Positions 4,390 through 32,067 of a stretch of 32,068 nt of DNA are shown piece after piece. Origin of the DNA: an uncultured Gammaproteobacteria bacterium (lineage in GTDB: Bacteria > Patescibacteriota > Patescibacteriia > UBA2591 > UBA6264); assembly GCA_964485025.1 (NCBI GenBank), contig CAZAGY010000001.1, forward strand, positions 1-32,068, read 5' to 3'. The notes below the pieces were generated by a model. It was not told where the DNA came from. It was given only the letters and a program-made list of their open reading frames with translations, and made no database searches. Within the stretch, counting starts at the first letter, position 1. Each line of letters opens with the position of its first letter. A program made the translations under genes and the position numbers.

Positions 4390-5409
4390 ATGGTTAAACA
4401 ACAAGAAGAAACTCCCCGTCAAAAAGCGGCCGAAATGGCGGTGGAGCAGTTAAAAGCCCGCTTTGGAGATGGAGCGATTATGAAAATGGGAGAAGCTAAA
4501 AGGATGGAAGTGGAAGTTATTCCCACCGGCTGTCTTTCTTTGGACTTGGCCTTGGGTGTCGGCGGTATTCCCCGCGGCCGGATAATTGAAATTTTCGGTA
4601 TGGAGATGAGCGGTAAAAGCACTTTAACCCTGCATATGATTGCTGAGGCCCAAAAAAGAGGCGGTACTGCGGCTTTTATTGACGCCGAGCACGCCTTAGA
4701 CCCGGAATACGCCAAAAAGATAGGGGTGAACATTGATGAACTTTTGATTTCTCAGCCGGATACCGGTGAACAAGCCTTGGAAATTGTGGAAACTTTGGTG
4801 CGGTCAAACGGTGTTGATATCATTGTCATTGATTCCGTTGCCGCTTTAACGCCCAGAAAGGAAATAGAAGGCGAGATGGGGGACCAGCAAATGGGTTTAC
4901 AGGCCCGTTTAATGAGTCAGGCTTTAAGAAAATTAACTAGCATTGTCAGTAAGACCAAGACGGCAGTCATTTTTATTAATCAGATAAGAATGAAAATAGG
5001 AATTATGTTCGGCAATCCGGAGACAACCACCGGAGGTTTGGCCTTGAAGTTTTATTCTTCCGTCAGAATTGAGGTCAGGCGGTTGGCCCAGATTAAAAGA
5101 GGAGAAGATGTCATCGGCAATAAAGTAAAGGCCAAGATTGTCAAGAACAAAGTGGCGCCGCCGTTTAAGGTCTGTGAATTTGAGATTATGTATGACGAAG
5201 GCATTTCCTGGACTGGAGATTTGTTGAATATAGGGGCTAAACACAATTTGGTCAAGAAATCGGGCAATACTTTGAGTTATGGCGAAAACAAGCTGGGCGT
5301 CGGTTGGGAAAATGCCAAAAAATTTCTGAAGGACAACAAAAAGGTGGCGCAGGAGTTAAAAAAAGATATTTTAAAAGCCATTAAAGAAGAAGAAAAGCAA
5401 GCCAAGTAA
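4390..5409 (+). CDS. recA: Recombinase RecA
   Basis: The protein is RecA-like along its full length: [30 protein letters not shown]-loop [39 protein letters not shown] and [17 protein letters not shown]. Confidence 0.97.
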
Positions 5410-5441
5410 AAGGAATAAAAAAAGAAAATCCGTAATATATC

Positions 5442-5475
5442 AAAAATCGCCGTTAAAGGCGATTTTTGTTTTTTG
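5442..5475 (+). terminator. Rho-independent terminator after recA
   Basis: A 10-bp stem, aaaaatcgcc (5442-5451) paired with ggcgattttt (5458-5467), has loop gttaaa and is followed by a T-run (gtttttt). Confidence 0.75.
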
Positions 5476-5627
5476 GTTTTTCTAATGAGGTCGGACCTCT
5501 TTAAATCTAAAATTCCGTCCTCACCCCAACCATCCACACCCCCTTACCTGTAATTATTTATCAACAACGTTATTATACTGTTATATGTTAAAAAACACAT
5601 ATTTCGGAAACAAAACAAGACTAAATT

Positions 5628-6239
5628 ATGCAATTTATAGAATTTAAAAGAAAATTAAAAGATTTTGTTATTTTTAGCTTGAATGATATTCGTAAAATTG
5701 AGGCCGATTTTGATTTGCGTCGTCTTAACGAGTGGGCTGGCAAAAATTATATAAGAAAGATAAAGAGGGGATATTATATTTTTTCCGACCTGCTGATAAA
5801 CGAACAAATTTTATTTTTAATTGCTAATACCATTTATCAACCATCGTATATTTCCCTGGAAATGGCTTTTTCTCTATATAATCTTATTCCCGAGGGGGTT
5901 TATAAAATAACCGCGATAACTTCAAAAAAGACAAATAATATTAAAACTGACATTGGCAATTTTACATATAAACACATTAAGCCTGAATTAATGTTTGGTT
6001 ATGAGCTTAGAGAATATGACAATCATCGCTATTCAGTGGCCGAAATAGAAAAAGCCGCGCTTGATTATCTTTATCTTAATTCTCATATAAATAGCAAAAA
6101 AGATTTTGACGGCTTAAGGTTTAATTTTTCCGAATTTAAGATTAAGGCCGATATGAATAAGTTTAAAAAATATTCTAACGCTTTTCATAATAAGGCGTTA
6201 TCTGTTAGAGTTAATAAATTTATATCTTATCTTAAATAA
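5628..6239 (+). CDS. abiEi: AbiEi-family antitoxin/transcriptional regulator (type IV TA / abortive infection AbiE)
   Basis: The N-terminal pattern FSLNDIRKIEADFDLRRLNEWAGKNYIRKIKRGYYIF matches the AbiEi N-terminal winged-helix (...G.l.ri.rG.Y). It sits 2 nt upstream of an AbiEii gene, which is the typical operon arrangement and size. Confidence 0.75.
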   Translation: MQFIEFKRKLKDFVIFSLNDIRKIEADFDLRRLNEWAGKNYIRKIKRGYYIFSDLLINEQILFLIANTIYQPSYISLEMAFSLYNLIPEGVYKITAITSKKTNNIKTDIGNFTYKHIKPELMFGYELREYDNHRYSVAEIEKAALDYLYLNSHINSKKDFDGLRFNFSEFKIKADMNKFKKYSNAFHNKALSVRVNKFISYLK

Positions 6240-6241
6240 AT

Positions 6242-7018
6242 ATGCTCAATCTTTCAAATATAGAAAAATATTATCCGGAAAACGAGCGACTGTTCAAGAA
6301 AAGCATTTTGCGGGAGTATTTGCAGTATAAGATTTTAGAAATTATTTTTAATTCAAAAATTGGACAAAAATTGTCATTTCTGGGCGGGACAACCCTTCGC
6401 ATTATTTACAACAACAGTCGATTTTCCGAGGATCTTGATTTTGATAACTTCGGTCTGAGTAAAAAGCAGTTTGTTTCCCTTACTGATGAAGTTAAAAACG
6501 GATTAGAGTCTCAGGGATATAAAGTTGAAATAAAAAACGTATTTAAGGGCGCGTGTCGTTTCTATATCAAAATACCCGGTCTTTTGTTTGACAATAAAAT
6601 GTCTAATATGCAAGATGAAAAGATTTTAATCCAAATTGATACGGCTCCGCATTTTTTTAATTATACGAGAGAATTAAAAATCATCAACAAATTTGATGTT
6701 TTTACCCAGGTTTATACGACGCCTCTTGATATACTTTTGTCGCAAAAAATTTACGCCGCATTAAATCGACCTCGAGCCAAAGGCAGGGATTTTTTTGACA
6801 TTGTTTTTCTTTTCCCCCAAACCGAACCTAACTACGAATATCTAAAAGAGAAGATCGGCATTAAGGATGGGTCGGGATTAAAACAAACGTTAATATCCAA
6901 AACTGCCAATTTTGATTTTGATAAATTAGCTAAGGACATTGAGCCGTTTCTTATCAACGCTGATGATGTTAAAAAAGTAAAAATGTTTATTCCCTATATT
7001 AAGTCTTTAAAGTTTTAA
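6242..7018 (+). CDS. abiEii: AbiEii/AbiGii-family nucleotidyltransferase toxin (DUF1814)
   Basis: It has the hallmark N-terminal motif LREYLQYKILEIIF...LSFLGGTTLRIIYNNSRFSEDLDFDN (GGTaL...RfSEDlDF) and the C-terminal RAKGRDFFDIVFL (RxRDxxD) motif. Confidence 0.85.
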   Translation: MLNLSNIEKYYPENERLFKKSILREYLQYKILEIIFNSKIGQKLSFLGGTTLRIIYNNSRFSEDLDFDNFGLSKKQFVSLTDEVKNGLESQGYKVEIKNVFKGACRFYIKIPGLLFDNKMSNMQDEKILIQIDTAPHFFNYTRELKIINKFDVFTQVYTTPLDILLSQKIYAALNRPRAKGRDFFDIVFLFPQTEPNYEYLKEKIGIKDGSGLKQTLISKTANFDFDKLAKDIEPFLINADDVKKVKMFIPYIKSLKF

Positions 7019-7021
7019 GAT

Positions 7022-7070
7022 TACGCGGAACAATAAATTGGGCGTTGGTTGGGAAAACGCTAAAAAGTTA
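7022..7070 (+). pseudogene. Diverged remnant of a recA 3' segment (codons equivalent to Y297-K311 of the intact gene)
   Basis: tacgcggaa-c-aataaattgggcgttggttgggaaaacgctaaaaag aligns with recA 5278-5322 (tatggcgaaaacaagctgggcgtcggttgggaaaatgccaaaaaa). After a 1-nt indel it translates as [12 protein letters not shown], identical to RecA, and nearly all differences fall at third codon positions. It starts 3 nt after the abiEii stop. Confidence 0.7.
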
Positions 7071-7100
7071 AGGAGCCTCGTTCCTCAAATTCAGCTAATA

Positions 7101-7133
7101 ATACAAAACCCTCTTTTGAAGAGGGTTTTGTAT
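7101..7133. terminator. Bidirectional intrinsic terminator (perfect 15-bp stem)
   Basis: atacaaaaccctctt-ttg-aagagggttttgtat lies between convergent genes, with abiEii and the recA remnant on + and the 7152..7547 ORF on -. A- and T-rich flanks occur on both sides. Confidence 0.75.
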
Positions 7134-7151
7134 TGTATTGAAAAATAAGTT

Positions 7152-7547
7152 TTAATTCCGGTTGGGAAAAATTTGAAATTCCTTCAGCATTTTGATTTCT
7201 TCTTTTTTAAGAATATTCTTATTTTTAAGAAATTCAATTAAGAGTTCAACTTTTTTATCTTGTTTTCTCTGCCGGACGATTACAGAACCCTCTAAATCTG
7301 ACAATTTATCATCAAGATAGGATTTGGTAACCATATTGTTTTCTACTCCATCTAATCGGTTTTCTACTCCATCTAATCGGTTTTCTACTCCATCTAATCG
7401 GTTTTCTACTCCATCTAATCGGTTTTCTACTTTGATAAAATGTTTATCTATTTTATCAAAAGAGGGCTTGATAATTTTTATCGCCAAATCGTCAATTTCA
7501 TCATTCATTATTCTTTTTATTTTTTTCAAATCTTTTTCTTCAAGCAT
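7152..7547 (-). CDS. Small coiled-coil protein with perfect VENRLDG heptad repeats (function unknown)
   Basis: The 131-aa ORF contains VENRLDG x4 plus VENNMVT, encoded by identical 21-nt units. A consensus sigma70-type promoter lies 27 nt upstream of the ATG. No family was recognised. Confidence 0.6.
   Translation of the reverse strand: MLEEKDLKKIKRIMNDEIDDLAIKIIKPSFDKIDKHFIKVENRLDGVENRLDGVENRLDGVENRLDGVENNMVTKSYLDDKLSDLEGSVIVRQRKQDKKVELLIEFLKNKNILKKEEIKMLKEFQIFPNRN
7338..7431 (-). repeat. Tandem 21-nt repeat, 4 perfect copies plus a 10-nt partial copy
   Basis: The unit gttttctactccatctaatcg occurs at 7338-7358, 7359-7379, 7380-7400 and 7401-7421, with a partial copy at 7422-7431. The copies run head to tail with no spacers and are in frame with the minus-strand ORF. 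Confidence 0.95.
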
Positions 7548-7573
7548 ATTTTTATATTTATCTCTTATATCCT

Positions 7574-7601
7574 ATTATATCACCCTTAGGCAAGATGTCA
7601 A
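7574..7601 (-). promoter_or_regulatory. Consensus sigma70-type promoter with extended -10
   Basis: The minus strand reads TTGACA (7601-7596), a 16-nt spacer ending in TGa, then TATAAT (7579-7574). The ATG at 7547 lies 27 nt downstream of the -10 element. Confidence 0.5.
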
Positions 7602-7659
7602 ATGGCATATAAAAGATTTATGTTTTCATGTTCCAATGTTTTTTCCAATCCCCAATTGA

Positions 7660-7725
7660 CCAATTACCCGACTCTCTTTTATATAATCCCAATTACCCAA
7701 TTACCCAATTACCCGACTCTCTTTT
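7660..7725 (-). repeat. 21-nt direct duplication of the wzz 3' end plus an 8-nt tandem repeat (CCCAATTA)
   Basis: ccaattacccgactctctttt occurs identically at 7660-7680 and 7705-7725. Between and overlapping these copies are four C3 runs (7688-90, 7696-98, 7704-06, 7712-14) separated by aatta. Confidence 0.85.
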
Positions 7726-8696
7726 CCAAAGTATTCCGCGGCAAAAGCGTAGAAAACACCTACAAACAAGCCGATAATCCCGGCAATCATCACGTTTTGT
7801 TTTCTTTTGGGGCTGATTCTCGTTTCCGGTAAAGTGGCCTCCACTTCTATTTTTGTCGGTTTGGTTTGATAGGCCTTTTCATATTCTTTTTGTTGAATTG
7901 ACTGGTTTAAAGAAATCAATCCTTGTTCCAAATCTAAAATTTGCGCTTCTTTGTTTTCTTTTTGATTTTTGACAGAAGCTAAGAGGTTAATGTAACTCTC
8001 GGCGATTCGTCCCTGTCCTTCGGTCTGAATATCGCTTCTTTTGGATATTTCCTGCTCGTATTTTTTTATGTCGGTATTTAAGCGGACGATATCGGCTTTT
8101 ATTCTTTCAATGTCCTTTTCAGTCTTTTCTTTACTTTTAACAATTGTTTCCACTTCTGATTCAAAGGTTTCTTTTGCTTCGGAAAAAAGTTTATCGTGGC
8201 GTTCAATCAGCGCGTCAGCAACCACATTAGCCACTTCAACCGATTTTTTCGGAGTTTCCGCCCGGCCCTTGATTCTTAAGAGATTAGAGCTGGCGCCCAT
8301 CGGCGATTCAATAGTGAAAAATTCTGATATAGATTCAATATTTTTATCTTCCGGCAGATTCAATTTTCCCGCGATTTCTTTTAAAATTGTTCGGCGAGCG
8401 AAAATTTCTTTAATTTCATCCGGCGTTTCCAATATTTTATCTTTACTTTTACCAATTTCAACTAAATTAATAGCTTCATAAGTCGGGGACATGAGTAAAC
8501 TGATAATCGCTGCGGCGATAACCGTGATTAAGAAGATAGCCCCGATAGCCCATTTTCTTTTAATTAAGACGTTAATATAGTCCCGCAAGTCAATTTCGTC
8601 GTCATTATAATGACCCTCCGAAGCCTTGGCGGGGGTGGACTTTTCAAGTTCCGGTTTTGGCCGATTTTGGTCAAGATGAATGTTGTAATTTTCCAT
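7701..8696 (-). CDS. wzz: Wzz-like polysaccharide co-polymerase / chain-length determinant
   Basis: The N-terminus DDEIDLRDYINVLIKRKWAIGAIFLITVIAAAIISLLMSPTYEA is a Wzz-type signature with TM1. A long coiled-coil periplasmic region follows, then a C-terminal TM (NVMIAGIIGLFVGVFYAFAAEYF). No kinase domain is present. Confidence 0.8.
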   Translation of the reverse strand: MENYNIHLDQNRPKPELEKSTPAKASEGHYNDDEIDLRDYINVLIKRKWAIGAIFLITVIAAAIISLLMSPTYEAINLVEIGKSKDKILETPDEIKEIFARRTILKEIAGKLNLPEDKNIESISEFFTIESPMGASSNLLRIKGRAETPKKSVEVANVVADALIERHDKLFSEAKETFESEVETIVKSKEKTEKDIERIKADIVRLNTDIKKYEQEISKRSDIQTEGQGRIAESYINLLASVKNQKENKEAQILDLEQGLISLNQSIQQKEYEKAYQTKPTKIEVEATLPETRISPKRKQNVMIAGIIGLFVGVFYAFAAEYFGKESRVIG

Positions 8697-8805: not shown

Positions 8806-10683
8806 TTAATGTTCCAATGTTCCTCGTATCGGCACTAAATCGTTTAGTGTTTTGATTAAGGCTTCTTTGTCGTTCTTTTCCAACCCTTGTTGAAATTCTT
8901 TCAGGCTGTTTAAGAGTTTTTGTTCGTCAATATCAGAGAGTTTGGCAATGAATATTTTTTCGTTCTTGGTGGGAATTTCGTTTTTAGTCAGGATTTCCTC
9001 AAACAGTTTTTCGCCGGGCCGGACGCCGGTGAAAACAATAGGAATATCCACATCCGGTCGATAACCGGCCAAACGGATCATTTCTTTGGCCAAATCAACG
9101 ATTTTAATCGGTTTACCCATATCCAGGACGAAAACTTCGCCGCCTTGGCCGATGGCTCCGGCTTGCATGACCAATAGGCATGCTTCGGCCGTAATCATGA
9201 AATATCTTTTCATTTCCTGGTCAGTTACTTCCACCGGCCCGCCTTTTTCAATTTGTTTTTTAAACACCGGCACCACGCTGCCTTGGCTGCCTAAAACATT
9301 GCCGAATCTGACAGCGCAGAATTTTGTTTTGTTTTGCTTATTAAGCCAGACGCAGACCATCTCGCAGACTCTTTTGCTGGCGCCCATAATGGAAGTGGGG
9401 TTAATGGCCTTGTCCGTGGAAATCATGACGAATTTTTCCACCTGGTGCTTTAGGGCATTTTGCCCCAGGTTTAAAGTTCCGAAAATGTTATTTTTTATCG
9501 CTTCGTCCGGATTTTCTTCCATTAAGGGAACGTGTTTATAGGCGGCGGCGTGAAAAATGACCTGAGGCTTAAGGTTTTCAAAGATTTTGTCAATTTTATT
9601 CACATCGTAGATATCAGCGATGATAAACGTCTTCTTTATTTGCGGAGATAATTTATTTAAGTCTTTTTCCAGATAAAAAGTGCCGGTTTCACTTTGGTCC
9701 AGAGTAATTAAATGTCGGGGTTGGAATTTTAAAATCTGTTTACAAAGGTCGGAGCCGATTGACCCGGCGGCCCCGGTGACCAGAATGGTTTTATCGGTAA
9801 TATAGTTTTGAATTGATTGCATGTCTATTTCCACCGGATTTCGTCCCAGTAAGTCTTCAATTGATATTTCCCTTAAATGGCTTAAACTGATTTTTTCCGC
9901 CAGAATTTCCTTGGTGCTGGGCAATATTTTTATTTTTTCCACTCCGGCGACTCTGGCCAAAGATACGGTCTGGCGGATTGTTTTTTGGCTGGCGGAGGGC
10001 AGAGCGATGAATATTTCTTTAACTCCGTATTTTTGGATTATCCCCGGAAGGTCGTCTTTTTTACCCAAAACTTTAATGCCGTGGATTAAAATCCCTTGTT
10101 TCATGTAGTCGTCGTCAATAAAGCCGATAGGGGAATAAATGGTTTCTTTTGAAGAAAGAATATGCCTGACTAATTGTTCACCGGCTTCGCCGGCGCCGAT
10201 TATCAGGACCGGTTTGCCGATTATTTTTTTACCATTGCGGTTAAGGCTGATTTTAAAGCCGTGAAGATAGATTCTTTTGGAGAAACGGAAACCGCCGACC
10301 AATAGAAAGCTTAAAAATCCGGAAATGAAGATGATGGAGCGGGGAAAGCCCTCAAAAACCGGAAAATGGCGGATGATAAACATAACTGCGCCGACTGACA
10401 AAAAACCGGCAATAATTCCCCGGGCAACCCTTAAAAGCTCGCGGACGCTGATATATGACCAGGAAATGGAGTACAAATGTTCCAATAAGAAGAAAAAAAT
10501 GGTCAGGGGTACGGCCAGGGCGATAAAGCTTTTAATCATCGGCCAGTAATGAGAGGGGATTTGGCCGTCAAAACGCAATAAAAATCCCAGGACGCAGGAC
10601 AGGGAAATTAAGACAACGTCGCCAAAAATGAACAACAGTATTCGTTTGAAATTGGTTTTTTTAAATATTTTAGATACTAACAT
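8806..10683 (-). CDS. capD: Membrane-bound nucleotide-sugar 4,6-dehydratase (CapD/PglF/WbpM family)
   Basis: Four N-terminal TM segments are followed by two Rossmann motifs (IIGAGEAGEQL; VTGAAGSIGSDL). It also has FHAAAYKHVPLME, ISTDKAINPTSIMGASKR and RFGNVLGSQGSVVP, which are typical of this family. Confidence 0.9.
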   Translation of the reverse strand: MLVSKIFKKTNFKRILLFIFGDVVLISLSCVLGFLLRFDGQIPSHYWPMIKSFIALAVPLTIFFFLLEHLYSISWSYISVRELLRVARGIIAGFLSVGAVMFIIRHFPVFEGFPRSIIFISGFLSFLLVGGFRFSKRIYLHGFKISLNRNGKKIIGKPVLIIGAGEAGEQLVRHILSSKETIYSPIGFIDDDYMKQGILIHGIKVLGKKDDLPGIIQKYGVKEIFIALPSASQKTIRQTVSLARVAGVEKIKILPSTKEILAEKISLSHLREISIEDLLGRNPVEIDMQSIQNYITDKTILVTGAAGSIGSDLCKQILKFQPRHLITLDQSETGTFYLEKDLNKLSPQIKKTFIIADIYDVNKIDKIFENLKPQVIFHAAAYKHVPLMEENPDEAIKNNIFGTLNLGQNALKHQVEKFVMISTDKAINPTSIMGASKRVCEMVCVWLNKQNKTKFCAVRFGNVLGSQGSVVPVFKKQIEKGGPVEVTDQEMKRYFMITAEACLLVMQAGAIGQGGEVFVLDMGKPIKIVDLAKEMIRLAGYRPDVDIPIVFTGVRPGEKLFEEILTKNEIPTKNEKIFIAKLSDIDEQKLLNSLKEFQQGLEKNDKEALIKTLNDLVPIRGTLEH

Positions 10684-10764: not shown

Positions 10765-11367
10765 TCATATTTTACTTAAAACGGCTTTTTTTAGTTTGGA
10801 AAATTGATGTTGATTTAGATTTAATTCAGAAACCTCAGTTGTTGTTTTTAATAATTTTTTTAAATCGTCAACAAAATTTTGTTTTTTTTGTGTTTTCAAA
10901 ATTTTTAAATAGAAGTTAAAGTCAAAATTTTGCCGGAGCATGCTAATAATGTCAATTTTATCTTTTTCCCCTTTAGTAGACCCAACGCGGTCTTGGAAAG
11001 CATGTTGTTTTAAAACCATTAAAATTTCCATTTTAGGGACTGTGAAACCGGAATGTTTAACAGTATTTTTTTGTATTTCGTCATAAGGGATTCCTAAATC
11101 GGAAAAAAACGGCAGATAAATATCAATATCGGTATTATCTTGTTTAATTTCATATTTCTTTAATCTTTGGTTTTTGATCAAATCGTAATTTTTCCGTAAT
11201 TTCTCTAATTCTTGATAATCGCAGATAAAATCAATATCTTTTGATTTTAACCCATTTGTGTAAATAAAAACAGCCCATCCGCCAATTAAAATGAATTTAT
11301 ATTTATTCTTTAAGTCTTGAAGGGTTTTCCAGCTTTTTCCGGTTATTAAGTTATGGTAAAAAGACAT
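10765..11367 (-). CDS. Minimal Pol-beta-superfamily nucleotidyltransferase (putative toxin/effector of a two-gene module)
   Basis: It has the NTase signature ILIGGWAVFIYTNGLKSKDIDFI (GG...x...DxD), a second acidic cluster NTDIDIY, and a C-terminal KGEKDKIDIISML (KD..D) motif as in AbiEii/DUF-type NTases. It starts 3 nt after the upstream wHTH gene. Confidence 0.65.
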   Translation of the reverse strand: MSFYHNLITGKSWKTLQDLKNKYKFILIGGWAVFIYTNGLKSKDIDFICDYQELEKLRKNYDLIKNQRLKKYEIKQDNTDIDIYLPFFSDLGIPYDEIQKNTVKHSGFTVPKMEILMVLKQHAFQDRVGSTKGEKDKIDIISMLRQNFDFNFYLKILKTQKKQNFVDDLKKLLKTTTEVSELNLNQHQFSKLKKAVLSKI

Positions 11368-11369
11368 AA

Positions 11370-11957
11370 TTAGATATTAATTTTGTTTTTTAAGGCATTT
11401 AGAAAATCCTGCGCATACCATTCCCCGACATTCCATAAATCAACAAAGGTTTGGCACAAAGGAGTGGTTTCTCCGTAATTACGCAAGAATTTATCTTGTT
11501 TTATAACAATTAAGTTTGGATAGCCCTTTTTTGAGGGAAATCTTTTTTTTATTTCCTCCAATTCTTTTTCCTTTGAATAGATGTAAATTTTATCATAATC
11601 GGCGGGTTGATCGTCAAAGCGCTGATTATAAGCAGTGTAAAGGCCGTAAATTATTTTAGGAGGCATTAAGGCTTCAATTTTTTTAGGAGGTAAATCAACT
11701 TTCGTTTGATAAATTATATCTTTTTTTAAATTTCTATAAGTGGCCCAGAGATATAAGAATTTTTCCCTATTTATTATTCGGAAATTTCGACTATTAACTT
11801 CAATAATTTTTAATTGGCGGGGGACTTTCAGCGCATTAAAAACAGTGCTTAAAGAAATAGAAAATTTTTGGGCTAATTCTTTTTGGGTAAATTGCTCAAT
11901 ATTTTTTTCAATAGTTTGATAAAGGATTTCTCTCCAGATTATTTCTTTTTTATTCAT
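11370..11957 (-). CDS. Winged-HTH regulator, AbiEi-like putative antitoxin
   Basis: The N-terminal HTH is FTQKELAQKFSISLSTVFNALKVPRQLKIIEV. The C-terminal domain ends ...PLCQTFVDLWNVGEWYAQDFLNAL, resembling the AbiEi/COG5340 C-terminal pattern (...e.tl.Dl...). It is tightly coupled to the NTase gene. This assignment comes from pattern memory, not a search. Confidence 0.55.
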   Translation of the reverse strand: MNKKEIIWREILYQTIEKNIEQFTQKELAQKFSISLSTVFNALKVPRQLKIIEVNSRNFRIINREKFLYLWATYRNLKKDIIYQTKVDLPPKKIEALMPPKIIYGLYTAYNQRFDDQPADYDKIYIYSKEKELEEIKKRFPSKKGYPNLIVIKQDKFLRNYGETTPLCQTFVDLWNVGEWYAQDFLNALKNKINI

Positions 11958-12122: not shown

Positions 12123-12221
12123 TGGCCGTCAAAACGCAATAAAAATCCCAGGACGCGGGACAGGGAAATCAAGACAACGTCACCGAATAAAAACAGCAGT
12201 ATTTGTTTGAAGTTGGTTTTT
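12123..12221 (-). pseudogene. Remnant of a capD 5' end (codons 9-41), lacking a start codon
   Basis: A 99-nt ungapped match to 10562-10660 has 10 mismatches. It translates as KTNFKQILLFLFGDVVLISLSRVLGFLLRFDG, versus KTNFKRILLFIFGDVVLISLSCVLGFLLRFDG in the intact gene. Similarity stops abruptly at 12122/12123. Confidence 0.85.
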
Positions 12222-13428: not shown

Positions 13429-14369
13429 AAATTATAGATTAAGATGCCTGATATTACTATTATACTTTGAATAAAGCAGCAAATCAAGACTGTTTTTTTA
13501 ATTGATAATCCTTTTAAGTGTAAGCGGTCGTATAAATGTCCTCGGTCGCCCAAAAGCGGGGATTGTCCATGACCGACTCGGCGGATAATTGCCCAACTGG
13601 CGTCAAAAATTGGCAAACCAATAATTAGGATTGGACCAATAAATTGCTTGATGTTATATAAAGGATGCCCAGTAAATGTAATTGCCAAAATAGCCAGTAA
13701 AAATCCTAAAAAATGACTGCCATTGTCGCCCATAAAGATTGAGGCCGGATTCCAATTATAAACCAAAAAACCGATAATTCCGCCCAATAGACTTAAAGAT
13801 AATATTAAACCAAAAATATTGTTTTGTATCGCCGACAGAATAGCAAAGCCGGTCAAAGAAACAACAGTTACACCGCCGGCCAAGCCGTCCATTCCATCTT
13901 GCATATTTAAGGCGTTCATAGCGCCGACAACATAAAAGCCGGCGATTAAGGCGGCTAAAATCGGATAAATGGAAAAATTAAAATTAACCCCGATTTTTAT
14001 CAAAATAAGCACGATGACGGTTCCGGCTAAAAGTTGGCAAAATAATTTGAGAAAAGGGCTGCCAAATTTTTTCCATTTTAAATCGTCCCAAAAACCCAAA
14101 AGTAAAATGACAATACTGCCGATTAAAAGGCCGAGAGATTGAAGACCTGATATTTGGTGAAATATTCGAGCTATGGCCAACCCGGCGCCGAACCCTATAA
14201 AAATACCAATTCCGCCAAGATAGGGGATGGGCTTTTGATGAATTTTCAAAGCGTCTCCCGCCGGGTTATCATAAAGGAGATATTTTATGGAAAATCTTTT
14301 AAGTAAAGGAATAAAGATAAGAGAGAAAGTAAAAGCGATTAAAATGGAAGAAAGTAGTAATAAATTCAT
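13425..14369 (-). CDS. Polyprenyl-phosphate HexNAc-1-phosphate transferase (MraY/WecA/WbpL family, GT4 superfamily)
   Basis: It is a polytopic membrane protein with NALNMQDGMDGLAGG (the DGxDGLA motif) and FMGDNGSHFLGF. It overlaps both neighbours by 4 nt (ATGA). Confidence 0.9.
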   Translation of the reverse strand: MNLLLLSSILIAFTFSLIFIPLLKRFSIKYLLYDNPAGDALKIHQKPIPYLGGIGIFIGFGAGLAIARIFHQISGLQSLGLLIGSIVILLLGFWDDLKWKKFGSPFLKLFCQLLAGTVIVLILIKIGVNFNFSIYPILAALIAGFYVVGAMNALNMQDGMDGLAGGVTVVSLTGFAILSAIQNNIFGLILSLSLLGGIIGFLVYNWNPASIFMGDNGSHFLGFLLAILAITFTGHPLYNIKQFIGPILIIGLPIFDASWAIIRRVGHGQSPLLGDRGHLYDRLHLKGLSIKKTVLICCFIQSIIVISGILIYNL

Positions 14370-15361
14370 TTTTTTATTTTAAAATAAGTTAAAATTCCCC
14401 AAACAGATCCGAATCCGTAACAAAAGTGTAGGGTAAAAAAGAAAACAGGAAGTAATAGAAAATATTTTAACCCGTTTTTTTTGGCGATTTTGAAAGAAAA
14501 AAATAAATTGCCGGCAATATATGGAAAAACAATTAAAAATAAAAGCCATTTTCCTATTGGGTTAATAAAAAAAATTAAGACACTTCCTAATAAACCAACA
14601 ACAAAACAAAGAGGAGCAAAATGTCTTAGGTGGAGAGAGCCAGGAACTAATCTAGAGGTATAAACATTCCACAAGCCATTAGAAAAACCTTGTTTAGCAA
14701 ATTTAACAAAGGAATCAGAACAATGATAATATGATTTTATTTCTGGGGTCATAAAGATTTTACCCCCGTTTTTTATCAAACGAGTATTAAATTCAATATC
14801 GTGATTGCGAATTAATTTTTCGTTAAATAATCCGATTTTATTAAAAATATTTTTTCGATAGGCTCCATAAGCAACCGTATCCACATATTCTTCTTTTTGT
14901 GAATAACGAAAATTAGCCCCTCCGACCCCAAAAGGCGAGCCGAGGATAAAAGAAATAATTCTTCCAATAAATGATTCGCCAATAGTTTCAATTGGTCCAC
15001 CAACGCAATCAGCCTGAGTTTTTTCTAAATATTCAACATTTTTAGCAATAAAATTTTTATCTACGAAGCTGTGAGCGCCTAAAAATATAATTATTTCTCC
15101 TTTAGCTTTCTTTATCCCCAAATTGAAACCAAAAGAATTGAATTTTTTATGATTGTCTAAGAGTTCAATTTGATAATGGGAATTAGAGGTTTGAAATTTT
15201 TTGATTATTTCCTTAGTGTTGTCCGTACTTACTCCATCAACAACAATGATTTCAAAATTTTCTTTTGGATAATTCTGATTAATTAAAGAATAAAGACACT
15301 TTTCTATGTGTTTTTCTTCATTTCTACAAGCAATGATAGTTGAGACAAAGGAATTAATCAT
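14366..15361 (-). CDS. Family 2 glycosyltransferase with C-terminal membrane segments
   Basis: It has the GT-A N-terminus VSTIIACRNEEKHIEKCLYSLINQNYPKENFEIIVVDGVSTDNT and an ...HDIEFN (DxD-like) region. The C-terminus has 3-4 TM helices. Confidence 0.85.
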   Translation of the reverse strand: MINSFVSTIIACRNEEKHIEKCLYSLINQNYPKENFEIIVVDGVSTDNTKEIIKKFQTSNSHYQIELLDNHKKFNSFGFNLGIKKAKGEIIIFLGAHSFVDKNFIAKNVEYLEKTQADCVGGPIETIGESFIGRIISFILGSPFGVGGANFRYSQKEEYVDTVAYGAYRKNIFNKIGLFNEKLIRNHDIEFNTRLIKNGGKIFMTPEIKSYYHCSDSFVKFAKQGFSNGLWNVYTSRLVPGSLHLRHFAPLCFVVGLLGSVLIFFINPIGKWLLFLIVFPYIAGNLFFSFKIAKKNGLKYFLLLPVFFFTLHFCYGFGSVWGILTYFKIKK

Positions 15362-15370: not shown

Positions 15371-17233
15371 TTATTTATTCAAAATAAATTTTCTGCCCCA
15401 TAATTCTAAAATGAAAAATCTGAAAAATAGATTACTGGCATAAACCGACCACCCCGATCTATATTTTTTAAAACGATCTAACAATTTTTTAATGTCAATG
15501 TAATTTGAGAGGAAAGAAGCGTTTCTAAAGACAGAATCAATATCTGTATAAATTATTTTTTTAAACCAAATATCTTCGGGAGTATCGAAGCCCAATTTAT
15601 TTTTTCTCAATCTTATTTTTTTCGGCAAAATTCCCTTCATCGCATTTCTTAAGACAAACCTAGTCCAGCCATTCCGCATCTTTTGATTAAGCGGGAGAGC
15701 AGATATAAATTCTACTAATTGATAATCTAAAAACGGTACCCTGGCCTCAATGGCAAAAGCCATTGAATTTTTATCTTCATAACGTAAGAGCACCGGTAAA
15801 CTCCAAGAGGTAAAGTCCCTTTTAATGCGCCCCCCAATATTATTTTGATAACCAAAGGTTAGATTTTGTTCGTTAAATTTATTTAAAAATTGCGGATTGA
15901 ATAGGGTGTCTAATTTTAATAAATTTTTTCCTATTCTGAAATATTTTAATCCCTGCTTAATGTTTAAGGTTTTTAAAATATCAATTGACGAAAAGAACTT
16001 CGCGCACTCATTAATAAATAAAAGATATCGGCGGTTCTGCAGAAGTTTTTGTAAATAAAAGATATAAAATTTTCTGTAACCACACAACATTTCATCACCT
16101 CCTTGTCCATCCAATAAAACTTTAATTTTCTTATTCGCCATTTCCATTACTTTCCACTGAGCGTAAATACTAGTACTGGCGAAAGGTTCTTCTTGGTGCC
16201 AAAGTAATTTATCTAAATCTTGTAAAAATTTTGTTGGCTTAGGAAAAACATAATTTTTTTCGGCGCCAGTTTGCTTAATTATTTGTTTGATATATTTTCT
16301 CTCGTCAAAACGTTTTGTTTTAAAACAAGCAGAAAACGTTTTTTGTTTTTCTCCAATATTCAATATTTTTTCTTTTTTTAATAAATTATTAACCACACAA
16401 ACTATTGAAGAAGAATCTAAACCCCCTGAGAGACAAGAGCCAATTGGCACATCGCTTCTTAGGCGAATTTTTACCGCATTAATAAATAACTTGCGAAAAT
16501 TTTCGGCGCATTTTTGGTCAGAAGATAAATTATTAATTTCATCAGAAACATTAAAATCCCAGTAATTTTTTATAGTTACTAGCTCGTTATGTTTAATTTT
16601 TAACCAAGAGGCGGCGGGTAATTTTTTAATATTTTTGAAAAATGTTTCATCGGTATGATCTAAAATTCCAAATTTCAAGAAATCATAAATTAATTTATCA
16701 TTCGGCTCTCTGTGAATATTGTATTCTAAAATTGCTTTTATTTCCGAGGCAAAAATAAATTTTTCGTTATCATTATAATAATAAAATGGTTTAATACCAA
16801 ATCTATCTCGGCTACAAAAAAGTTCTTGTTTTTTATTATCCCAAATAGCAAAAGCCCACATTCCATTAAATTTTTTAACGCAGTCGGCTCCCCATTCCTC
16901 ATAAGCGTGGATAATAATCTCAGTATCAGTGTTTGATCTAAAGTGATGTTTTAGTTTTTTTAATTCGTAGCGGATCTCCAGATAGTTATATATTTCGCCG
17001 TTATAGGTAATCCAAATAGTTTTATCTTCGTTAGTCATCGGTTGATGGCCAAGGGGAGATAAATCAATAATTGAAAGGCGACGGTGTCCCAAACCCAGTT
17101 TTTTATTAGGCGATAAATAAATACCGGCGTCGTCTGGTCCGCGGTGAACCATTGTATCGCGCGCTTTAATTAAAGTTGGTTCATTCACCAACAGGTTGTT
17201 TTTATAATAAAAAATTCCAACTATTCCGCACAT
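15371..17233 (-). CDS. asnB: Glutamine-hydrolysing asparagine synthase-like amidotransferase (AsnB/WbpS type)
   Basis: The N-terminal nucleophile MCGIVGIF and the Ntn glutaminase domain (HRGPDD, RLSIIDL) are present. The synthetase domain has the PP-loop SCLSGGLDSS. Confidence 0.9.
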   Translation of the reverse strand: MCGIVGIFYYKNNLLVNEPTLIKARDTMVHRGPDDAGIYLSPNKKLGLGHRRLSIIDLSPLGHQPMTNEDKTIWITYNGEIYNYLEIRYELKKLKHHFRSNTDTEIIIHAYEEWGADCVKKFNGMWAFAIWDNKKQELFCSRDRFGIKPFYYYNDNEKFIFASEIKAILEYNIHREPNDKLIYDFLKFGILDHTDETFFKNIKKLPAASWLKIKHNELVTIKNYWDFNVSDEINNLSSDQKCAENFRKLFINAVKIRLRSDVPIGSCLSGGLDSSSIVCVVNNLLKKEKILNIGEKQKTFSACFKTKRFDERKYIKQIIKQTGAEKNYVFPKPTKFLQDLDKLLWHQEEPFASTSIYAQWKVMEMANKKIKVLLDGQGGDEMLCGYRKFYIFYLQKLLQNRRYLLFINECAKFFSSIDILKTLNIKQGLKYFRIGKNLLKLDTLFNPQFLNKFNEQNLTFGYQNNIGGRIKRDFTSWSLPVLLRYEDKNSMAFAIEARVPFLDYQLVEFISALPLNQKMRNGWTRFVLRNAMKGILPKKIRLRKNKLGFDTPEDIWFKKIIYTDIDSVFRNASFLSNYIDIKKLLDRFKKYRSGWSVYASNLFFRFFILELWGRKFILNK

Positions 17234-17239: not shown

Positions 17240-17416
17240 TTAATAATTTTGCACTCCATTTTCCCAATCATATTTTTTGAAATCCTCTTTTATTTCTTTA
17301 TCGTCCATTCCATCAGCAGCAATGACTTCAAGATTTTCTTTTGGATAAGTTTGTTGAATTAAAGAATTGAGGCACATTTCTATGTGTTTTTTTTCATTTC
17401 GGTAAGCAACAACCAT
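17240..17416 (-). pseudogene. Truncated copy of the GT2 5' end (about 58 codons)
   Basis: MVVAYRNEKKHIEMCLNSLIQQTYPKENLEVIAADG...KEIKEDFKKY parallels IIACRNEEKHIEKCLYSLINQNYPKENFEIIVVDG...KEIIKKF of 14366..15361. The nucleotide match runs from 17307 to about 17425 versus 15231 to about 15350, roughly four-fifths identical by eye. It stops after 58 codons. The longer track ORF (to 17536) overlaps the GT4 gene 3' end and is not credible. Confidence 0.8.
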
Positions 17417-17450
17417 GGAAGACAAAAATTGGCTAATTTTTAAAAAATAA

Positions 17451-20835: not shown

Positions 20836-22012
20836 ATTTATTTATAGACTGTTTTAGAGATAGATTATTTTCAATAAATTTACGACATCTTATGTTTGTG
20901 TTTTTATCTTCTAAAATTTTGAGAATGTTTTTTACTCCGGTTTGATAATTTTCTTTATTAAACTCATCAATCACTACGCCAAGGTTATTTTTTTTAACCA
21001 TTTCATCAGTGCCACTAATCTGGCCATTAATAATTACTGGCAATCCTGTAGATAAATATTCAGCAAACTTAATTGGAGAACAAGCTATCTTTTTTGTAAA
21101 AGTAGGTTGAATAAAAGAAATAGCTAAATCTGCGATAGAAAGATAATTTGGCATTTCTTGGGGTGGCACATCTATTATAGTATAATCCACCTCAATTAAA
21201 TTATTATTTAGTATTGTTTTTGTTTTGTCTTTTTCGTACGACAGAATAAGAAAGTGGGCACGATTTGATGTTTTTTTTAAAACAATAAAGAAATTTATCA
21301 TCTTGTCTATCAAATGCCATTCAGCAAATGAACCACTATAAACCAAGACGAGTTTATCAGATAATCCCAACTTCAATCGTAAATTTTTTCTTTGTTTGGG
21401 ATTGAAAACAAACTTATTTACATCAACACAGTTGGGGATGACAGTGATATTTTTTTTAGTTTTATAGAGAATGGAGTTTTGAATATAATCTTTAAAAGAT
21501 TCATTGACAACTACAATTGAATCGGCTGATAAAATAAGTTTTTTTTCCACATATTTAGCTAACTTATATTTTAAAGATCCTTTTGGCCAATTGCCGGAAT
21601 ACGCTTGTTCGTCAGGAATTAATCCTCTCATGTCAAAGATAAAATTTATTCTAAAAAATTTTTTAATAAACCAAACCATGATTGCGGGAATATAGCTTCT
21701 GGTTTGAATAACTTCTATTTTCTTTTTTTTAATAAGCCAACTAATATAAAAAATTCCTCGAATAATGTCTAATAAGCTAGCTGGAAAAAATGGCCAGTGC
21801 CAATAATTTAGAGTGTACCAATTTATCCCACTTTGTTCTAGTTCTTTCACCAACCAATCAACTTTTTTGGTTGATTTGTGTTGGAAAGAAAAAAATATAA
21901 AATGAATTCCTTTTTTTGATAGTTCTTTCATTTGAGGAATTCCCTGGGAGTAGACTATGGGGCTAATGCCAGAATGACTGATAAATAAAGCCTGCATAAA
22001 ATTATTTAACAA
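20804..22012 (-). CDS. Glycosyltransferase, GT-B fold (GT4 family / group 1)
   Basis: The C-terminal region LAISFIQPTFTKKIACSPIKFAEYLSTGLPVIINGQISGTDEMV is a typical GT1/GT4 nucleotide-sugar binding motif. Confidence 0.8.
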   Translation of the reverse strand: MLNNFMQALFISHSGISPIVYSQGIPQMKELSKKGIHFIFFSFQHKSTKKVDWLVKELEQSGINWYTLNYWHWPFFPASLLDIIRGIFYISWLIKKKKIEVIQTRSYIPAIMVWFIKKFFRINFIFDMRGLIPDEQAYSGNWPKGSLKYKLAKYVEKKLILSADSIVVVNESFKDYIQNSILYKTKKNITVIPNCVDVNKFVFNPKQRKNLRLKLGLSDKLVLVYSGSFAEWHLIDKMINFFIVLKKTSNRAHFLILSYEKDKTKTILNNNLIEVDYTIIDVPPQEMPNYLSIADLAISFIQPTFTKKIACSPIKFAEYLSTGLPVIINGQISGTDEMVKKNNLGVVIDEFNKENYQTGVKNILKILEDKNTNIRCRKFIENNLSLKQSINKYESIYQSFKK

Positions 22013-28008: not shown

Positions 28009-28019
28009 CTCAAGTTTTA

Positions 28020-29513: not shown

Positions 29514-29714
29514 TTCACTAAATTTTTATAGCAGATATTATTTTTTAAATTTAATTTTAATTTTTTATTTTTATCATCTTGATTTTATTTCACTGAGTAT
29601 GATCTCGCAAACGTATCCTCTAAATATAGAAACGCTACAAACGGAATATACGAATGTTACGAATCAAATATATGAATGACACAAATTACGAATAATGTGT
29701 AGTAAATTTTATTT

Positions 29715-29782
29715 ATAAAACTTTTTGATTTTTTGAATGATATAATTTTATTTTTTTTCAGCGAGTTCGGGATAAATCGGCA
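29715..29782 (-). pseudogene. Remnant A of a DegT-aminotransferase 3' end (in-frame stop)
   Basis: A 68-nt ungapped match to 31906-31973 has about 6 mismatches. The minus strand reads LPIYPELAEKK*NYIIQKIKKFYK*, versus LPIYPELTEKEQNYIIQKIKEFYH in the intact gene end. Confidence 0.75.
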
Positions 29783-29903
29783 GGAAGAAATGAAACCAGC
29801 ACCGATAATAGAGTAGTTCATAAATTTGATTTTTAATTTTTTGTTTTATTTTGTTTTAGATTTTTGAATTATTGGAAAGAGTTAGTTGTTTTGAGGTTGG
29901 GTG

Positions 29904-29931
29904 TGGACAATTTTTATAATTCCATTATAAC
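29904..29931 (+). promoter_or_regulatory. Possible promoter for the nuclease gene
   Basis: TGGACA (29904-29909), a 16-nt spacer and TATAAC (29926-29931) lie about 40 nt upstream of the ATG at 29971. This is weak evidence in AT-rich DNA. Confidence 0.25.
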
Positions 29932-29970: not shown

Positions 29971-30813
29971 ATGATAAAATTTAATATAGGAATAGGAAAA
30001 TTGAGCCGGCGCGACATAAGAGATTTGATTTTGGGCGGGATTATTATCGTTGCCGGAATACTTGGTGTGGTTACTTTATTTAACGGGACTGAAGGATTAA
30101 GAAAGTTTTTAAGCGGAATACTTGTTATTTTAATGACCATATTAATAGCTAGTGGGATAATTTCTTCGGAAATGAATTCCAATGCGATTTCTGAATCAGA
30201 AGCTAATTTAGTATCAGTTGTCAGAGTAATTGACGGCGACACAATAGTTGTAGATGGAGACGTTCATGTTCGTCTCTTAGGGATTGATGCTCCTGAAGCA
30301 GGGGATTGTTTCTATGAAGAATCTAAAGACGCTCTTGTAAATCTTGTTGACGGAGAAGAGGTTCGCTTGGAGAAAGATATTTCCGATAAGGACAATTTCG
30401 GGCGTTTGCTCAGATACGTGTTTTTGGAAAATAATTTATTTGTTAACGATTCTCTTTTAGAAGAAGGGTATGCGGATGTTTTGCCTTCTGGTCAAGATTT
30501 ACTATATAGGAGACTTTTAACCTCCAGTCGCAATCAGGCGATTACACAACGCCAAGGCATGTGGGGGGCCTGTGAAAATCAGGAAGAAGAGGCGGAAACC
30601 ATTTTTCCTTTGGAAAAAAATGATGTTCCAACCGATTCGGAATGTCTTATTAAGGGTAATATCTCAGAACACGGATACGGCCGAACTTATTTTTCTCCCG
30701 GCGACCCCAATTATGACACGGTAAAAGTGTCTTTTGACAAAGGGGAACAGTTTTTTTGCACAGAGCAGGAAGCCGAAGCGGCAGGCTACAAAAAGGCGGC
30801 AACTTCTTATTAG
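29971..30813 (+). CDS. Membrane-anchored thermonuclease (SNase-fold) with a Cys-containing C-terminal module
   Basis: Two N-terminal TM segments precede the SNase core VVRVIDGDTIVVDGDVHVRLLGIDAPEAGDCFYEESKDAL...GRLLRYVF...EGYA. The C-terminal motif is CLIKGNISEHGYGRTYFSPGDPNYDTVKVSFDKGEQFFCTEQEAEAAGYKKA. Confidence 0.85.
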   Translation: MIKFNIGIGKLSRRDIRDLILGGIIIVAGILGVVTLFNGTEGLRKFLSGILVILMTILIASGIISSEMNSNAISESEANLVSVVRVIDGDTIVVDGDVHVRLLGIDAPEAGDCFYEESKDALVNLVDGEEVRLEKDISDKDNFGRLLRYVFLENNLFVNDSLLEEGYADVLPSGQDLLYRRLLTSSRNQAITQRQGMWGACENQEEEAETIFPLEKNDVPTDSECLIKGNISEHGYGRTYFSPGDPNYDTVKVSFDKGEQFFCTEQEAEAAGYKKAATSY

Positions 30814-30856
30814 GATATTTTGTAAAAAGATCTGATTTTTTGAATGATATAATTAT
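30810..30856 (-). pseudogene. Remnant B of a DegT-aminotransferase 3' end (short)
   Basis: The minus strand reads NYIIQKIRSFYKIS*. The core tgattttttgaatgatataatt differs at 1 position from 31917-31938 of the intact gene. Its stop overlaps the nuclease stop codon. Confidence 0.55.
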
Positions 30857-30884
30857 TTAGAAGATACTGGTAAAGAGATTAATT

Positions 30885-31826
30885 TTACCTCTTTCGTTTT
30901 CTGTCGCGAATATATCTTTCAATCGCTTCTTTAGTGGTTAACCAGTTTCTTTTTTCTTTATGCGCTTCCAATTTCCCTTGCCGAACCAAAAGATTAAGAT
31001 ATTTCGCCGAATAAGGACAAAAATTGCTTGCTTCTTTTAAGGTAAGAATTTTTTCTCTTTTTTTGGAAATAGGAGTAAGGGTTTTTAAATAAATATCCAA
31101 AGAACGTTCTATTGCTTGCGCGATAAATCGGATAAAGGGGATTAAATTATTTTTATCAGCTTCGGCCAATACTCGGTAATATTTTTTTCTATCATTTTTT
31201 AATACAATAACCAATGGATACCCCGTTCGCATTAAAATTAAATTCATTATTAATCTTGCCGTTCTGCCGTTTCCATCAAAGAAGGGATGGATATAAGTTA
31301 ATTTATGATGAATTATAACGGCTAATTCGATTAGGTGCGATTTCTTTTGATTTTGCCTCCACCATTTTATTAGTTTTCCCATTTCGTATGGAACATCAAT
31401 GGCCTCCGGCGGTTTATGCTCCGCGCCGCCAATAATCACGCCACTGTTTCTATATCTTCCCGCCCATTCTTTGTCAGTCTCCTGAATGATTAATTGATGT
31501 AAACCGCGAATCAGCTGTTCGGAAATGGTCTGTTTTTTGTCTTTTTCTATTAAGTCAGATAAGTATTCCAATGCTTCATAATGATTTTTCGCTTCAAGGT
31601 GGTCTTTAAGAGGTTTTCCTTTTATGGTGATTCCTTCGTTAATTACCAAAAATGTTTCTTTTAAAGTTAGGCTATTCCCTTCAATCCCATTTGAGTTGTA
31701 AGTCATTTCTATCCTAAATTGTTCCCTAAGTTTTTTAACGGCCGAAGGTGGTAAGGGCCTAAGTTTATTCAGGGCTTTTAATTTATTTTCAATTCTGTCT
31801 TTTATTTTTTTTTCCAAATATTGCAT
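30885..31826 (-). CDS. Fic-family protein (class II, self-inhibited AMPylase type) with C-terminal excisionase/MerR-like HTH
   Basis: The Fic motif HPFFDGNGRTARL (HxFx[DE]GNGRxxR) is present. The N-terminal inhibitory motif SNGIEG fits [ST]xxxE[GN]. The C-terminus is LTLKEASNFCPYSAKYLNLLVRQGKLEAHKEKRNWLTTKEAIERYI (HTH_17-like). Confidence 0.9.
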   Translation of the reverse strand: MQYLEKKIKDRIENKLKALNKLRPLPPSAVKKLREQFRIEMTYNSNGIEGNSLTLKETFLVINEGITIKGKPLKDHLEAKNHYEALEYLSDLIEKDKKQTISEQLIRGLHQLIIQETDKEWAGRYRNSGVIIGGAEHKPPEAIDVPYEMGKLIKWWRQNQKKSHLIELAVIIHHKLTYIHPFFDGNGRTARLIMNLILMRTGYPLVIVLKNDRKKYYRVLAEADKNNLIPFIRFIAQAIERSLDIYLKTLTPISKKREKILTLKEASNFCPYSAKYLNLLVRQGKLEAHKEKRNWLTTKEAIERYIRDRKRKR

Positions 31827-31875
31827 AGAAAATAAGGGTTAATATGGTTTATCTATATTTTTATAATATACCATA

Positions 31876-32067
31876 TTAAGAAATGTTATCAAGTTTTTGG
31901 ACGTGATAAAACTCTTTGATTTTCTGAATGATATAATTTTGTTCTTTTTCAGTGAGTTCAGGATAAATCGGCAAAGAAAGGACTTCTCGGCAGGCTTTTT
32001 CCGTTTCCGGCAAAGAGCCTTTTTTATATTTCAAATATTTAAAGGCGGGCTGGAGATGAAGAGGATA
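31876..32067 (-). CDS. DegT/DnrJ/EryC1/StrS-family aminotransferase, 3' end only (gene continues beyond the window)
   Basis: The minus-strand frame is open from the window edge: YPLHLQPAFKYLKYKKGSLPETEKACREVLSLPIYPELTEKEQNYIIQKIKEFYHVQKLDNIS*. This is the canonical DegT C-terminus (PLHLQPAF...P.aE......LSLPiyPeLt.e). It is absent from the ORF track because it has no Met and is truncated. Confidence 0.85.
   Translation of the reverse strand, partial: YPLHLQPAFKYLKYKKGSLPETEKACREVLSLPIYPELTEKEQNYIIQKIKEFYHVQKLDNIS

Follow-up and report, generated by a model that had tools for sequence, protein, structure and literature searches.

Diverged gene-end remnants beside accessory genes in a Patescibacteria polysaccharide locus point to imprecise recombination between lineages

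Patescibacteria make up a large share of bacterial diversity and cannot be grown alone, and the ways in which they acquire genes have largely been inferred. The metagenome contig CAZAGY010000001.1, which relatives place in this phylum near Parcubacteria/Staskawiczbacteria, poses the question in a concrete form. We analysed the entire 32,068-nt contig of this metagenome-assembled genome (here "the window"), in which five times an intact gene end is followed by accessory genes ("cargo") and then by a shorter, diverged copy ("remnant") of that same gene end. What process leaves such a pattern? We favour, with a probability of roughly 55%, the view that diverged Patescibacteria lineages recombined imprecisely and left these structures as scars, in a polysaccharide locus that also gathers toxin-antitoxin and defence genes; each scar would combine one crossover in a conserved gene with one illegitimate join, in the manner of homology-facilitated illegitimate recombination (HFIR).

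Self-blastn and a repeat search of the window recovered all five repeats of the original prediction, at or a few bases from their predicted positions: recA around AbiE genes (event E1), capD around a helix-turn-helix (HTH) and nucleotidyltransferase (NTase) pair (E2), a family 2 glycosyltransferase (GT2) around asnB (E3), and DegT twice, with a nuclease and a Fic gene (E4 and E5). The predicted gene identities (RecA, AbiE, capD, NTase, GT2, asnB, nuclease, Fic and DegT) agree with Pfam and PADLOC matches. The repeats range from 36 to ~130 nt, with identities of 75–91% across events. For significance, each gene end was compared solely with the non-coding gap in which its remnant was predicted, against 2000 shuffles and all other windows of the contig. 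All five pairs scored above 2000 of 2000 shuffles and above every other contig window, E5 marginally so (score 22, against a best of 20 elsewhere in the contig). In every event the intact gene end runs on into the gene body; comparison with the relatives, which are 15–30% diverged, yielded no crossover point. Differences between the copies had been expected to concentrate at synonymous sites. Of the changed codons, 7 of 8 are synonymous in E1, as expected, and 6 of 10 in E2, where the bias is weak; E3 (5 of 18), E4 (2 of 6) and E5 do not show it. Comparison of both copies with relatives, as a test for the native copy, gave no discrimination for E2–E4, the E3 remnant being merely more decayed.

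At E1, the intact recA gene (4390–5409, + strand; Pfam RecA, 1.4e-134, and RecA_C) carries the intact repeat copy at 5271–5324 and is followed by a terminator hairpin at ~5443–5468. The cargo (5628–7018, +) comprises AbiEi (5628–6239; PADLOC 6e-59) and AbiEii (6242–7018; PADLOC 3e-92, Pfam AbiEii), a toxin-antitoxin/abortive-infection pair. Beyond it, self-blastn and alignment revealed a recA 3′ remnant (~7020–7069) and, after ~30 nt, an old recA terminator hairpin (7100–7134), the whole spanning 7020–7134 (+). The two copies (5271–5324 and 7014–7069) are 77% identical with gaps, with an ungapped core of 31/38. The remnant is thus an internal recA piece of 44–50 nt followed by the old terminator, with ~100 nt of the old tail gone. 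It matches the recA end of another lineage (locus L036; L-numbers label related loci) at 38/40, and its terminator hairpin resembles that lineage's; the working recA end of the window is 80% identical to L036 and has a terminator of its own. Because the differences are near-purely synonymous and both remnant and terminator are L036-like, the two copies come from different lineages, and the remnant is an allele that diverged under purifying selection, both copies having evolved as functional genes. The same recA–AbiE–remnant junction, identical at every base, is present in two assemblies made independently from other samples (L161, ENA; L162, JGI), whose sole difference from the window is a 42-nt tandem-repeat difference (two fewer 21-nt units); it is therefore not an assembly artefact. 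An exact-protein look-up for strain-level alleles found AbiEii, in the same arrangement as in the window, and returned none for recA, capD, DegT, wzx, Fic or the NTase.

The 21-nt units belong to an open reading frame (ORF) at 7152–7547 (−), encoding a small coiled-coil protein with the heptad repeat VENRLDG. Five tandem units lie at 7317–7460, and their number varies in the population, the same strain in the ENA contig L161 having two fewer (the 42-nt gap).

Event E3 supplies the most telling evidence on mechanism. The intact GT2 gene (14366–15361, −; Pfam) carries the intact repeat at ~15232–15349 (self-blastn), and the cargo is a homologue of glutamine-hydrolysing asparagine synthase (15371–17233, −; Pfam Asn_synthase, 7.7e-69). 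Directly upstream of asnB, alignment to L168 and L036 identified the 3′ end, with stop codon, of a foreign family 1 glycosyltransferase (GT1) gene (17240–17300, −). Next to it lies a decayed GT2 5′ remnant (17306–17426, −), located by alignment and by a weak Pfam GT2 match in ORF 17240–17536, with an indel and many non-synonymous changes. The pair as detected (15190–15349 and 17276–17426) is 75% identical with gaps; true GT2 homology covers only ~17306–17426 (90/116). The GT1-type fragment resembles the 3′ end of the L168 glycosyltransferase gene (77% identity over 79 nt) and L036 7–70 (78% over 64 nt), but not the end of the GT1 gene that the window itself carries. The scar thus reads GT2 5′ fragment, foreign GT1 3′ fragment, asnB, GT2, with the join at ~17300–17309 and a possible, tentative ATGG microhomology there. 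A GT2 5′ fragment joined to an unrelated GT1 3′ fragment implies that the imported piece began at a random break in a donor gene. The junction is therefore an illegitimate join with a ragged end and does not mark the limit of any defined cassette: imported DNA would have joined the resident GT2 at ~+120, possibly via the ATGG overlap. A tblastx search of the cargo edges of the window found no foreign gene fragments besides that of E3.

Sites without cargo were present in relatives. Loci L001, L081 and L082 (capD protein 87% identical) are collinear with the window, but at E1 and E2 they have neither cargo nor remnant; in them, DegT overlaps capD by 26 nt at the empty E2 site, and the recA–wzz spacer at the empty E1 site measures 113 nt. 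The empty E3 site was found in L166, which together with L163 lies on the 517-kb JGI contig Ga0378408_0000012: there the GT1–GT2 gap is 9 nt, with neither asnB nor remnant. Since cargo-free relatives also lack the remnant, the remnants accompany the rearrangement and are not old independent elements. For E1–E3 this sustains the original reading of them as scars against the alternative named alongside it, ancient conserved elements independent of cargo. Different cargo occupies the position upstream of capD elsewhere, namely AbiE (L083/L084), Fic (L005) and, between DegT and capD, two AAA_14/DUF4143 ATPases (L166).

The recA–wzz spacer is a third variable spot. It holds AbiE and the coiled-coil gene in the window, nothing in L001, and in L083 (4318–5014) and L036 (13989–14682) a conserved small-gene pair, DUF5674 and a 115-aa protein.

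At E2, the intact capD-type sugar epimerase/dehydratase gene (8806–10683, −; Pfam Polysacc_synt_2, 2.5e-114) carries the repeat at 10562–10660. The cargo (10765–11957, −) comprises a DUF6036 nucleotidyltransferase (10765–11367) and its HTH partner (11370–11957), identified by Pfam and a weak AbiEii-like PADLOC match. The capD 5′ remnant (12123–12221, −), found by self-alignment, covers codons ~9–41, lies directly against the stop codon of DegT and terminates at capD +122. The pair (10562–10660 and 12123–12221) is gap-free and identical at 89 of 99 positions. A second, independent capD scar is present in a sister lineage: L166 has a 130-nt capD 5′ remnant (15693–15822), 88% identical to its own capD, between the two ATPase genes. 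L170 and L036 are 98–99% identical to L166 across capD, yet the three have three arrangements upstream: L170 has ATPase2, a 101-aa ORF and capD, without the remnant or ATPase1, and L036 has neither ATPase upstream of capD. The intact capD 5′ end of L166 (99 nt) is 100% identical to that of L036 (98% over capD–wzz) and 90% identical to the window alleles. As the intact end is identical to that of L036, the L166 remnant is the foreign copy, and the piece that bears it is polymorphic within a species. The longest perfect run shared by the capD genes of the window and L166, which are 78% identical overall, is 53 nt (capD +91 to +143; window 10541–10593, L166 17798–17850); it encodes part of an N-terminal membrane segment, and its third codon positions are conserved too.

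In this one lineage, the region upstream of capD in which cargo varies is bounded on the left by a conserved intergenic element of ~130 nt that contains two hairpins (L166 14108–14236, L170 8038–8166, L036 9479–9574). It follows three different genes, is absent from the window and matched no Rfam family at a meaningful score.

Events E4 and E5 share one DegT 3′ end. The intact end belongs to a DegT-family aminotransferase gene that leaves the contig (31872–32068, −; Pfam DegT 310–359/360). Next to it come the E5 cargo, a Fic protein with a C-terminal HTH_17 domain (30885–31826, −; Pfam Fic and HTH_17, PADLOC SoFic 1.4e-40); remnant B, the last 12–15 codons and stop of DegT (30810–30854, −; alignment), which abuts the stop codon of the nuclease; a membrane-anchored SNase-family nuclease convergent with DegT (29971–30813, +; Pfam SNase, PADLOC SNc+LTD); and remnant A, which has an in-frame stop codon and lies ~170 nt upstream of wzx (29682–29793, −; alignment). 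The E4 pair (29682–29793 and 31872–31982) is 79% identical, with an ungapped core of 62/68. The E5 repeat (30819–30854) matches remnant A (29712–29747) at 31/36 and the intact copy at 28/36. Remnants A and B derive from the same DegT end and start 66 nt apart; AATTATATCATTCA is common to all three copies, and remnant B starts with it. Remnant A is 81% identical to the DegT end of L163, and the intact DegT end is 83% identical to L163 DegT. In L163 the nuclease occupies the same convergent position and orientation downstream of DegT, with AbiE between the two where the window has Fic, and no remnant. The nuclease had been taken for recently captured cargo; given its position in L163, it may instead be an old neighbour.

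The HTH_17 domain of the window Fic is an excisionase-type DNA-binding domain, and Fic genes in L104 end in HTH domains too.

These events lie in a region that recombines in other ways as well. The + strand of the window carries the end of rpoC, ftsK, an HTH gene and recA, and the − strand a long surface-polysaccharide locus (Wzz, capD, DegT, GT4, several GT1/GT2, Wzy, methyltransferases and Wzx). In 300-nt windows, identity to L163/L166 varies by block from 63 to 99% and is mostly 65–85%. The tract at 19500–21300 (−), the Wzy region, is 95–99% identical to Ga0378408_0000012, against 63–90% for the remainder of the locus, and reflects a recent homologous transfer between lineages otherwise diverged at species level. 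Judged by this profile, the polysaccharide locus is a recombination mosaic.

How common are such scars? We scanned 3143 gene ends from 160 capD loci (2.2 Mb), with an inverted-orientation control, and obtained 63 direct matches against 5 inverted ones. Most of the strong matches, and every strong match from outside Patescibacteria, turned out to be tandem paralogues or adjacent short repeats (L066, L057, L052 and L077). About four scars remained outside the window in the 2.2 Mb: L104, in which a Fic gene lies beside a perfect 33-nt copy of the end of the gene before it, L106, L092 (at an HPF gene end) and L166. Gene-end scars are thus rare outside the window and five in 27 kb is exceptional, in a window that had been picked because of its scars; specificity to the phylum is not demonstrated.

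Two other kinds of repeat-flanked unit occur in the related loci. In L092, nearly all differences between the repeats at 8077–8196 and 8494–8613 fall at adenines of the downstream copy, a hallmark of diversity-generating retroelements; the variable repeat is at the 3′ end of ORF 7488–8216, the template repeat lies downstream, and the unit sits between the intact end of the ribosome-hibernation-factor gene and its 114-nt remnant. L111 (4774–5452) and L118 (13324–14018) each hold a lone PaaX_M/Cas2-like gene (193–196 aa) with 38–41-nt direct repeats on either side. The repeats differ between the two loci and therefore derive from the target; this unit may be another small insertion type in Patescibacteria.

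Could a known class of element account for the window? Pfam profile searches of all ORFs in the 32-kb contig turned up neither a recombinase nor a transposase domain, no tRNA gene and no Rfam family was present in the window, and its inverted repeats were AT-rich and at noise level. The predicted lack of integrase, transposase, terminal inverted repeats, attC-like hairpins and tRNA genes was therefore borne out by the contig searches. Nothing in viral contigs matched the capD block, Fic or the HTH partner of the NTase. Target-site duplications of a transposon or insertion sequence were rejected, since the repeats are 36–130 nt long and 75–91% identical, with no transposase and no terminal inverted repeats; these lengths and identities, with E1 recurring in independent assemblies, uphold the earlier exclusion of both target-site duplications and assembly repeats. 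An integron cassette array does not fit either, as the sequences between cargo genes duplicate the ends of adjacent genes instead of forming imperfect palindromes, and there is no integrase. Mixed substitution spectra across E1–E5 and the lack of a reverse transcriptase dispose of a diversity-generating retroelement in the window, a repeat pair of that type having appeared in the unrelated locus L092 alone, and the lack of tRNA and Rfam matches there disposes of a tRNA-linked island or known RNA element. A C-terminal displacement array of the Rhs, contact-dependent inhibition (CDI) or type VI secretion system (T6SS) kind shares the geometry alone, the duplicated ends here belonging to recA, capD, GT2 and DegT. 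No sequence motif common to the junctions was found in the window. One candidate, TCCACACCC, occurs twice in the contig (~0.05 expected), at ~5530–5545 (+) upstream of AbiEi and at ~29895–29910 (−) upstream of the nuclease; it is non-coding and beside cargo in the window, but was rejected as a shared cargo-boundary motif because it is not conserved in the 2.2 Mb of related loci.

HFIR has been shown in the transformable bacteria Acinetobacter, Streptococcus pneumoniae and Pseudomonas stutzeri (PMC3240628, PMC2884548, PMC5361080), has also been seen in Escherichia coli conjugation (PMC3240628), and has been proposed for the orphan arrays of T6SS/Rhs loci (PMC5361080). Applied to the window, linear foreign DNA would have been integrated by two joins, a homologous crossover in recA, capD, GT2 or DegT and an illegitimate join at the other end. 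The incoming piece and the resident chromosome would each bring one gene terminus; one of the two would remain attached to the rest of the gene, while the other would be left behind as a short non-functional remnant. That the join falls in a gene terminus every time would reflect compactness and selection, not targeting: with empty-site spacers of −26, 9 and 113 nt, a ragged end would be tolerated almost only in a redundant, duplicated terminus, and the terminus geometry would follow from genome compaction and selection. Remnants may be short partly because sequences of 75–85% identity would begin to pair only on reaching the first long, perfectly matching block close to the gene end, and long direct repeats would be lost again, deleting the intervening DNA. 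We infer the strand-level mechanism, the uptake of DNA by transformation and the imported side of each scar from the scars themselves.

The match to HFIR lies in a presumed homologous anchor in a conserved gene at one end and a homology-free join at the other, in the lack of a dedicated recombinase or element ends, and in the E3 junction between unrelated gene fragments. Varying breakpoints (remnants A and B starting 66 nt apart, lengths of 36 to ~130 nt, no shared motif) count for illegitimate joining, and the same gene boundaries with different cargo in relatives, some of them remnant-free, count for imprecise recombination. Of the HFIR reading as originally put forward, the core is thus supported by the scars, the empty sites, the chimeric E3 join and recent exchange in the locus, whereas its assumed direction, a route free of any recombinase, even one acting in trans, and an extension from one contig to the whole genome go beyond the evidence. 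In particular, arrival of the cargo together with the intact gene end was not established: L170 has cargo beside capD without a remnant, and in L166 the remnant sits on an extra piece bearing a different gene. The window also departs from HFIR studies in that the process is read from scars, the donors are 10–25% diverged, the host is an uncultivated member of the Patescibacteria and five scars fall within 27 kb.

Several observations weigh against imprecise recombination of this kind. No donor sequence was found for any event, and microhomology is tentative and confined to E3. At five per 27 kb, scars are far more frequent here than in related loci, an excess that chance and selection explain only loosely. 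HFIR experiments usually delete resident DNA beyond the anchor, whereas here there is partial duplication instead. The window contains recA, and the competence and pilus genes fall outside this contig; such genes have been reported to be prevalent in Patescibacteria (PMC12455944), which speaks for the HFIR reading. Some breakpoints coincide with conserved sequence. In E2 the ten mismatches are confined to the 65 nt distant from the cargo and the 34 nt nearest to it match perfectly, resembling an attachment-site core, in a block that is conserved across lineages regardless of a scar. The independent capD remnants end at +122 (window) and +134 (L166), both within the 53-nt block, and the start of remnant A directly follows a perfect run of 31 nt. 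For E1, E3 and E5 we found no association of the breakpoint with a long perfect conserved block. Three processes would each account for the clustering in capD: homology-guided pairing that begins where the first long identical stretch occurs, a trans-acting recombinase with a core site, and a crossover of the Campbell type.

The last of these has an appreciable, though clearly smaller, chance of being right. Small circular cassettes carrying a host gene end as attachment site would integrate by a Campbell-type crossover, through a site-specific recombinase acting in trans or RecA acting on a short core; the element copy would repair the gene, and the displaced host end would be the remnant. 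Integrative elements with a replacement target-gene end are exemplified by phage 21 and e14 in icd, and tandem accretion by cis-mobilisable elements in streptococci. Their layout is an intact gene end, an element and a diverged displaced end, as in the window, with tandem arrays sharing one att site. The geometry of the window equals attL and attR around an element with a replacement gene end, and E4 and E5 resemble tandem accretion. The 34-nt identical stretch lies at the cargo-proximal end of the E2 remnant, the breakpoints of the two independent capD events, whose cargo differs, are separated by 12 nt in one 53-nt block, AATTATATCATTCA recurs in all three DegT-end copies with remnant B starting there, and a 33-nt perfect repeat surrounds the Fic gene in L104. 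However, replacement-end elements have their own or a known integrase and a fixed core. Here no integrase was found in or near the cargo or elsewhere in the 32-kb contig, no viral contig matched, the sites share no motif, the breakpoints vary (remnants A and B by 66 nt), and identical runs in E1 and E3 are no longer than 11–16 nt. The E3 cassette boundary lies inside the 3′ end of an unrelated gene, implausible for a defined element end, and cargo occurs at the same boundaries without any repeat in L163 and L170.

It is doubtful, next, that the scars arose once elsewhere and now spread by double crossover, the remnant serving as a portable homology arm beyond the cargo. The L166 remnant is foreign to its own genome (88% to its own capD), the remnant-bearing piece is present or absent among genomes 98–99% identical, and remnants keep the most conserved block of the gene end, all as such a route would have it. 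Yet no second genome had the same cargo with the same remnant, 36–50 nt at 80% identity (E1, E5) is below the usual minimum for efficient RecA pairing, and the first junction would still need an illegitimate event.

Slightly less probable again is that this clade has a route dedicated, at least in part, to inserting small defence and toxin-antitoxin cassettes at the termini of conserved genes, with short blocks of perfect nucleotide conservation, such as that of 53 nt in capD, as its guide. That route could be a trans-acting recombinase, or gene-end fragments acting as portable homology arms spread by transformation.

In-place partial duplications of gene ends that later diverged, or chimeric assembly joins, are very improbable even for a contig from a metagenome-assembled genome whose related strains co-occur in the same samples, because the copies are 9–25% apart, the near-purely synonymous E1 differences require divergence as two functional genes, the E1 remnant is 95% identical to another lineage, the E1 structure recurs in two independent assemblies and similar structures are present in unrelated ones (L104, L166).

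Two characterised systems come close to imprecise recombination as we read it here. T6SS effector-immunity, Rhs and CDI displacement arrays (PMC5361080) likewise have an intact gene followed by stranded 3′ ends with companion genes, an ordered history and no integrase; in those arrays the variable gene tip is itself the exchanged toxin, whereas in the window the ends are those of housekeeping and biosynthetic genes, the cargo genes are separate, and 5′ ends are hit as well as 3′ ends. In the capsule island of Neisseria meningitidis (PMC5349592), an acquired polysaccharide segment lies between intact galE and truncated galE (regions D/D′), but that is a single 24-kb island with long repeats, as against several 1–2-kb insertions with 36–130-nt remnants.

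The process is thus already known, and it is the density seen here that is unusual. To our knowledge, natural, readable scars of imprecise recombination have rarely been documented. Together, the scars, the empty sites, the chimeric junction and the present/absent alleles provide direct evidence, at the level of sequence, that these bacteria with reduced genomes gain and reshuffle defence and surface-glycan genes without classical mobile-element machinery. The general point would be that where there is almost no intergenic DNA, illegitimate joins survive only in a duplicated gene end, so that random processes mimic targeting. If the association with conserved blocks instead reflects a real targeting mechanism, it would represent a new route of cassette mobility.

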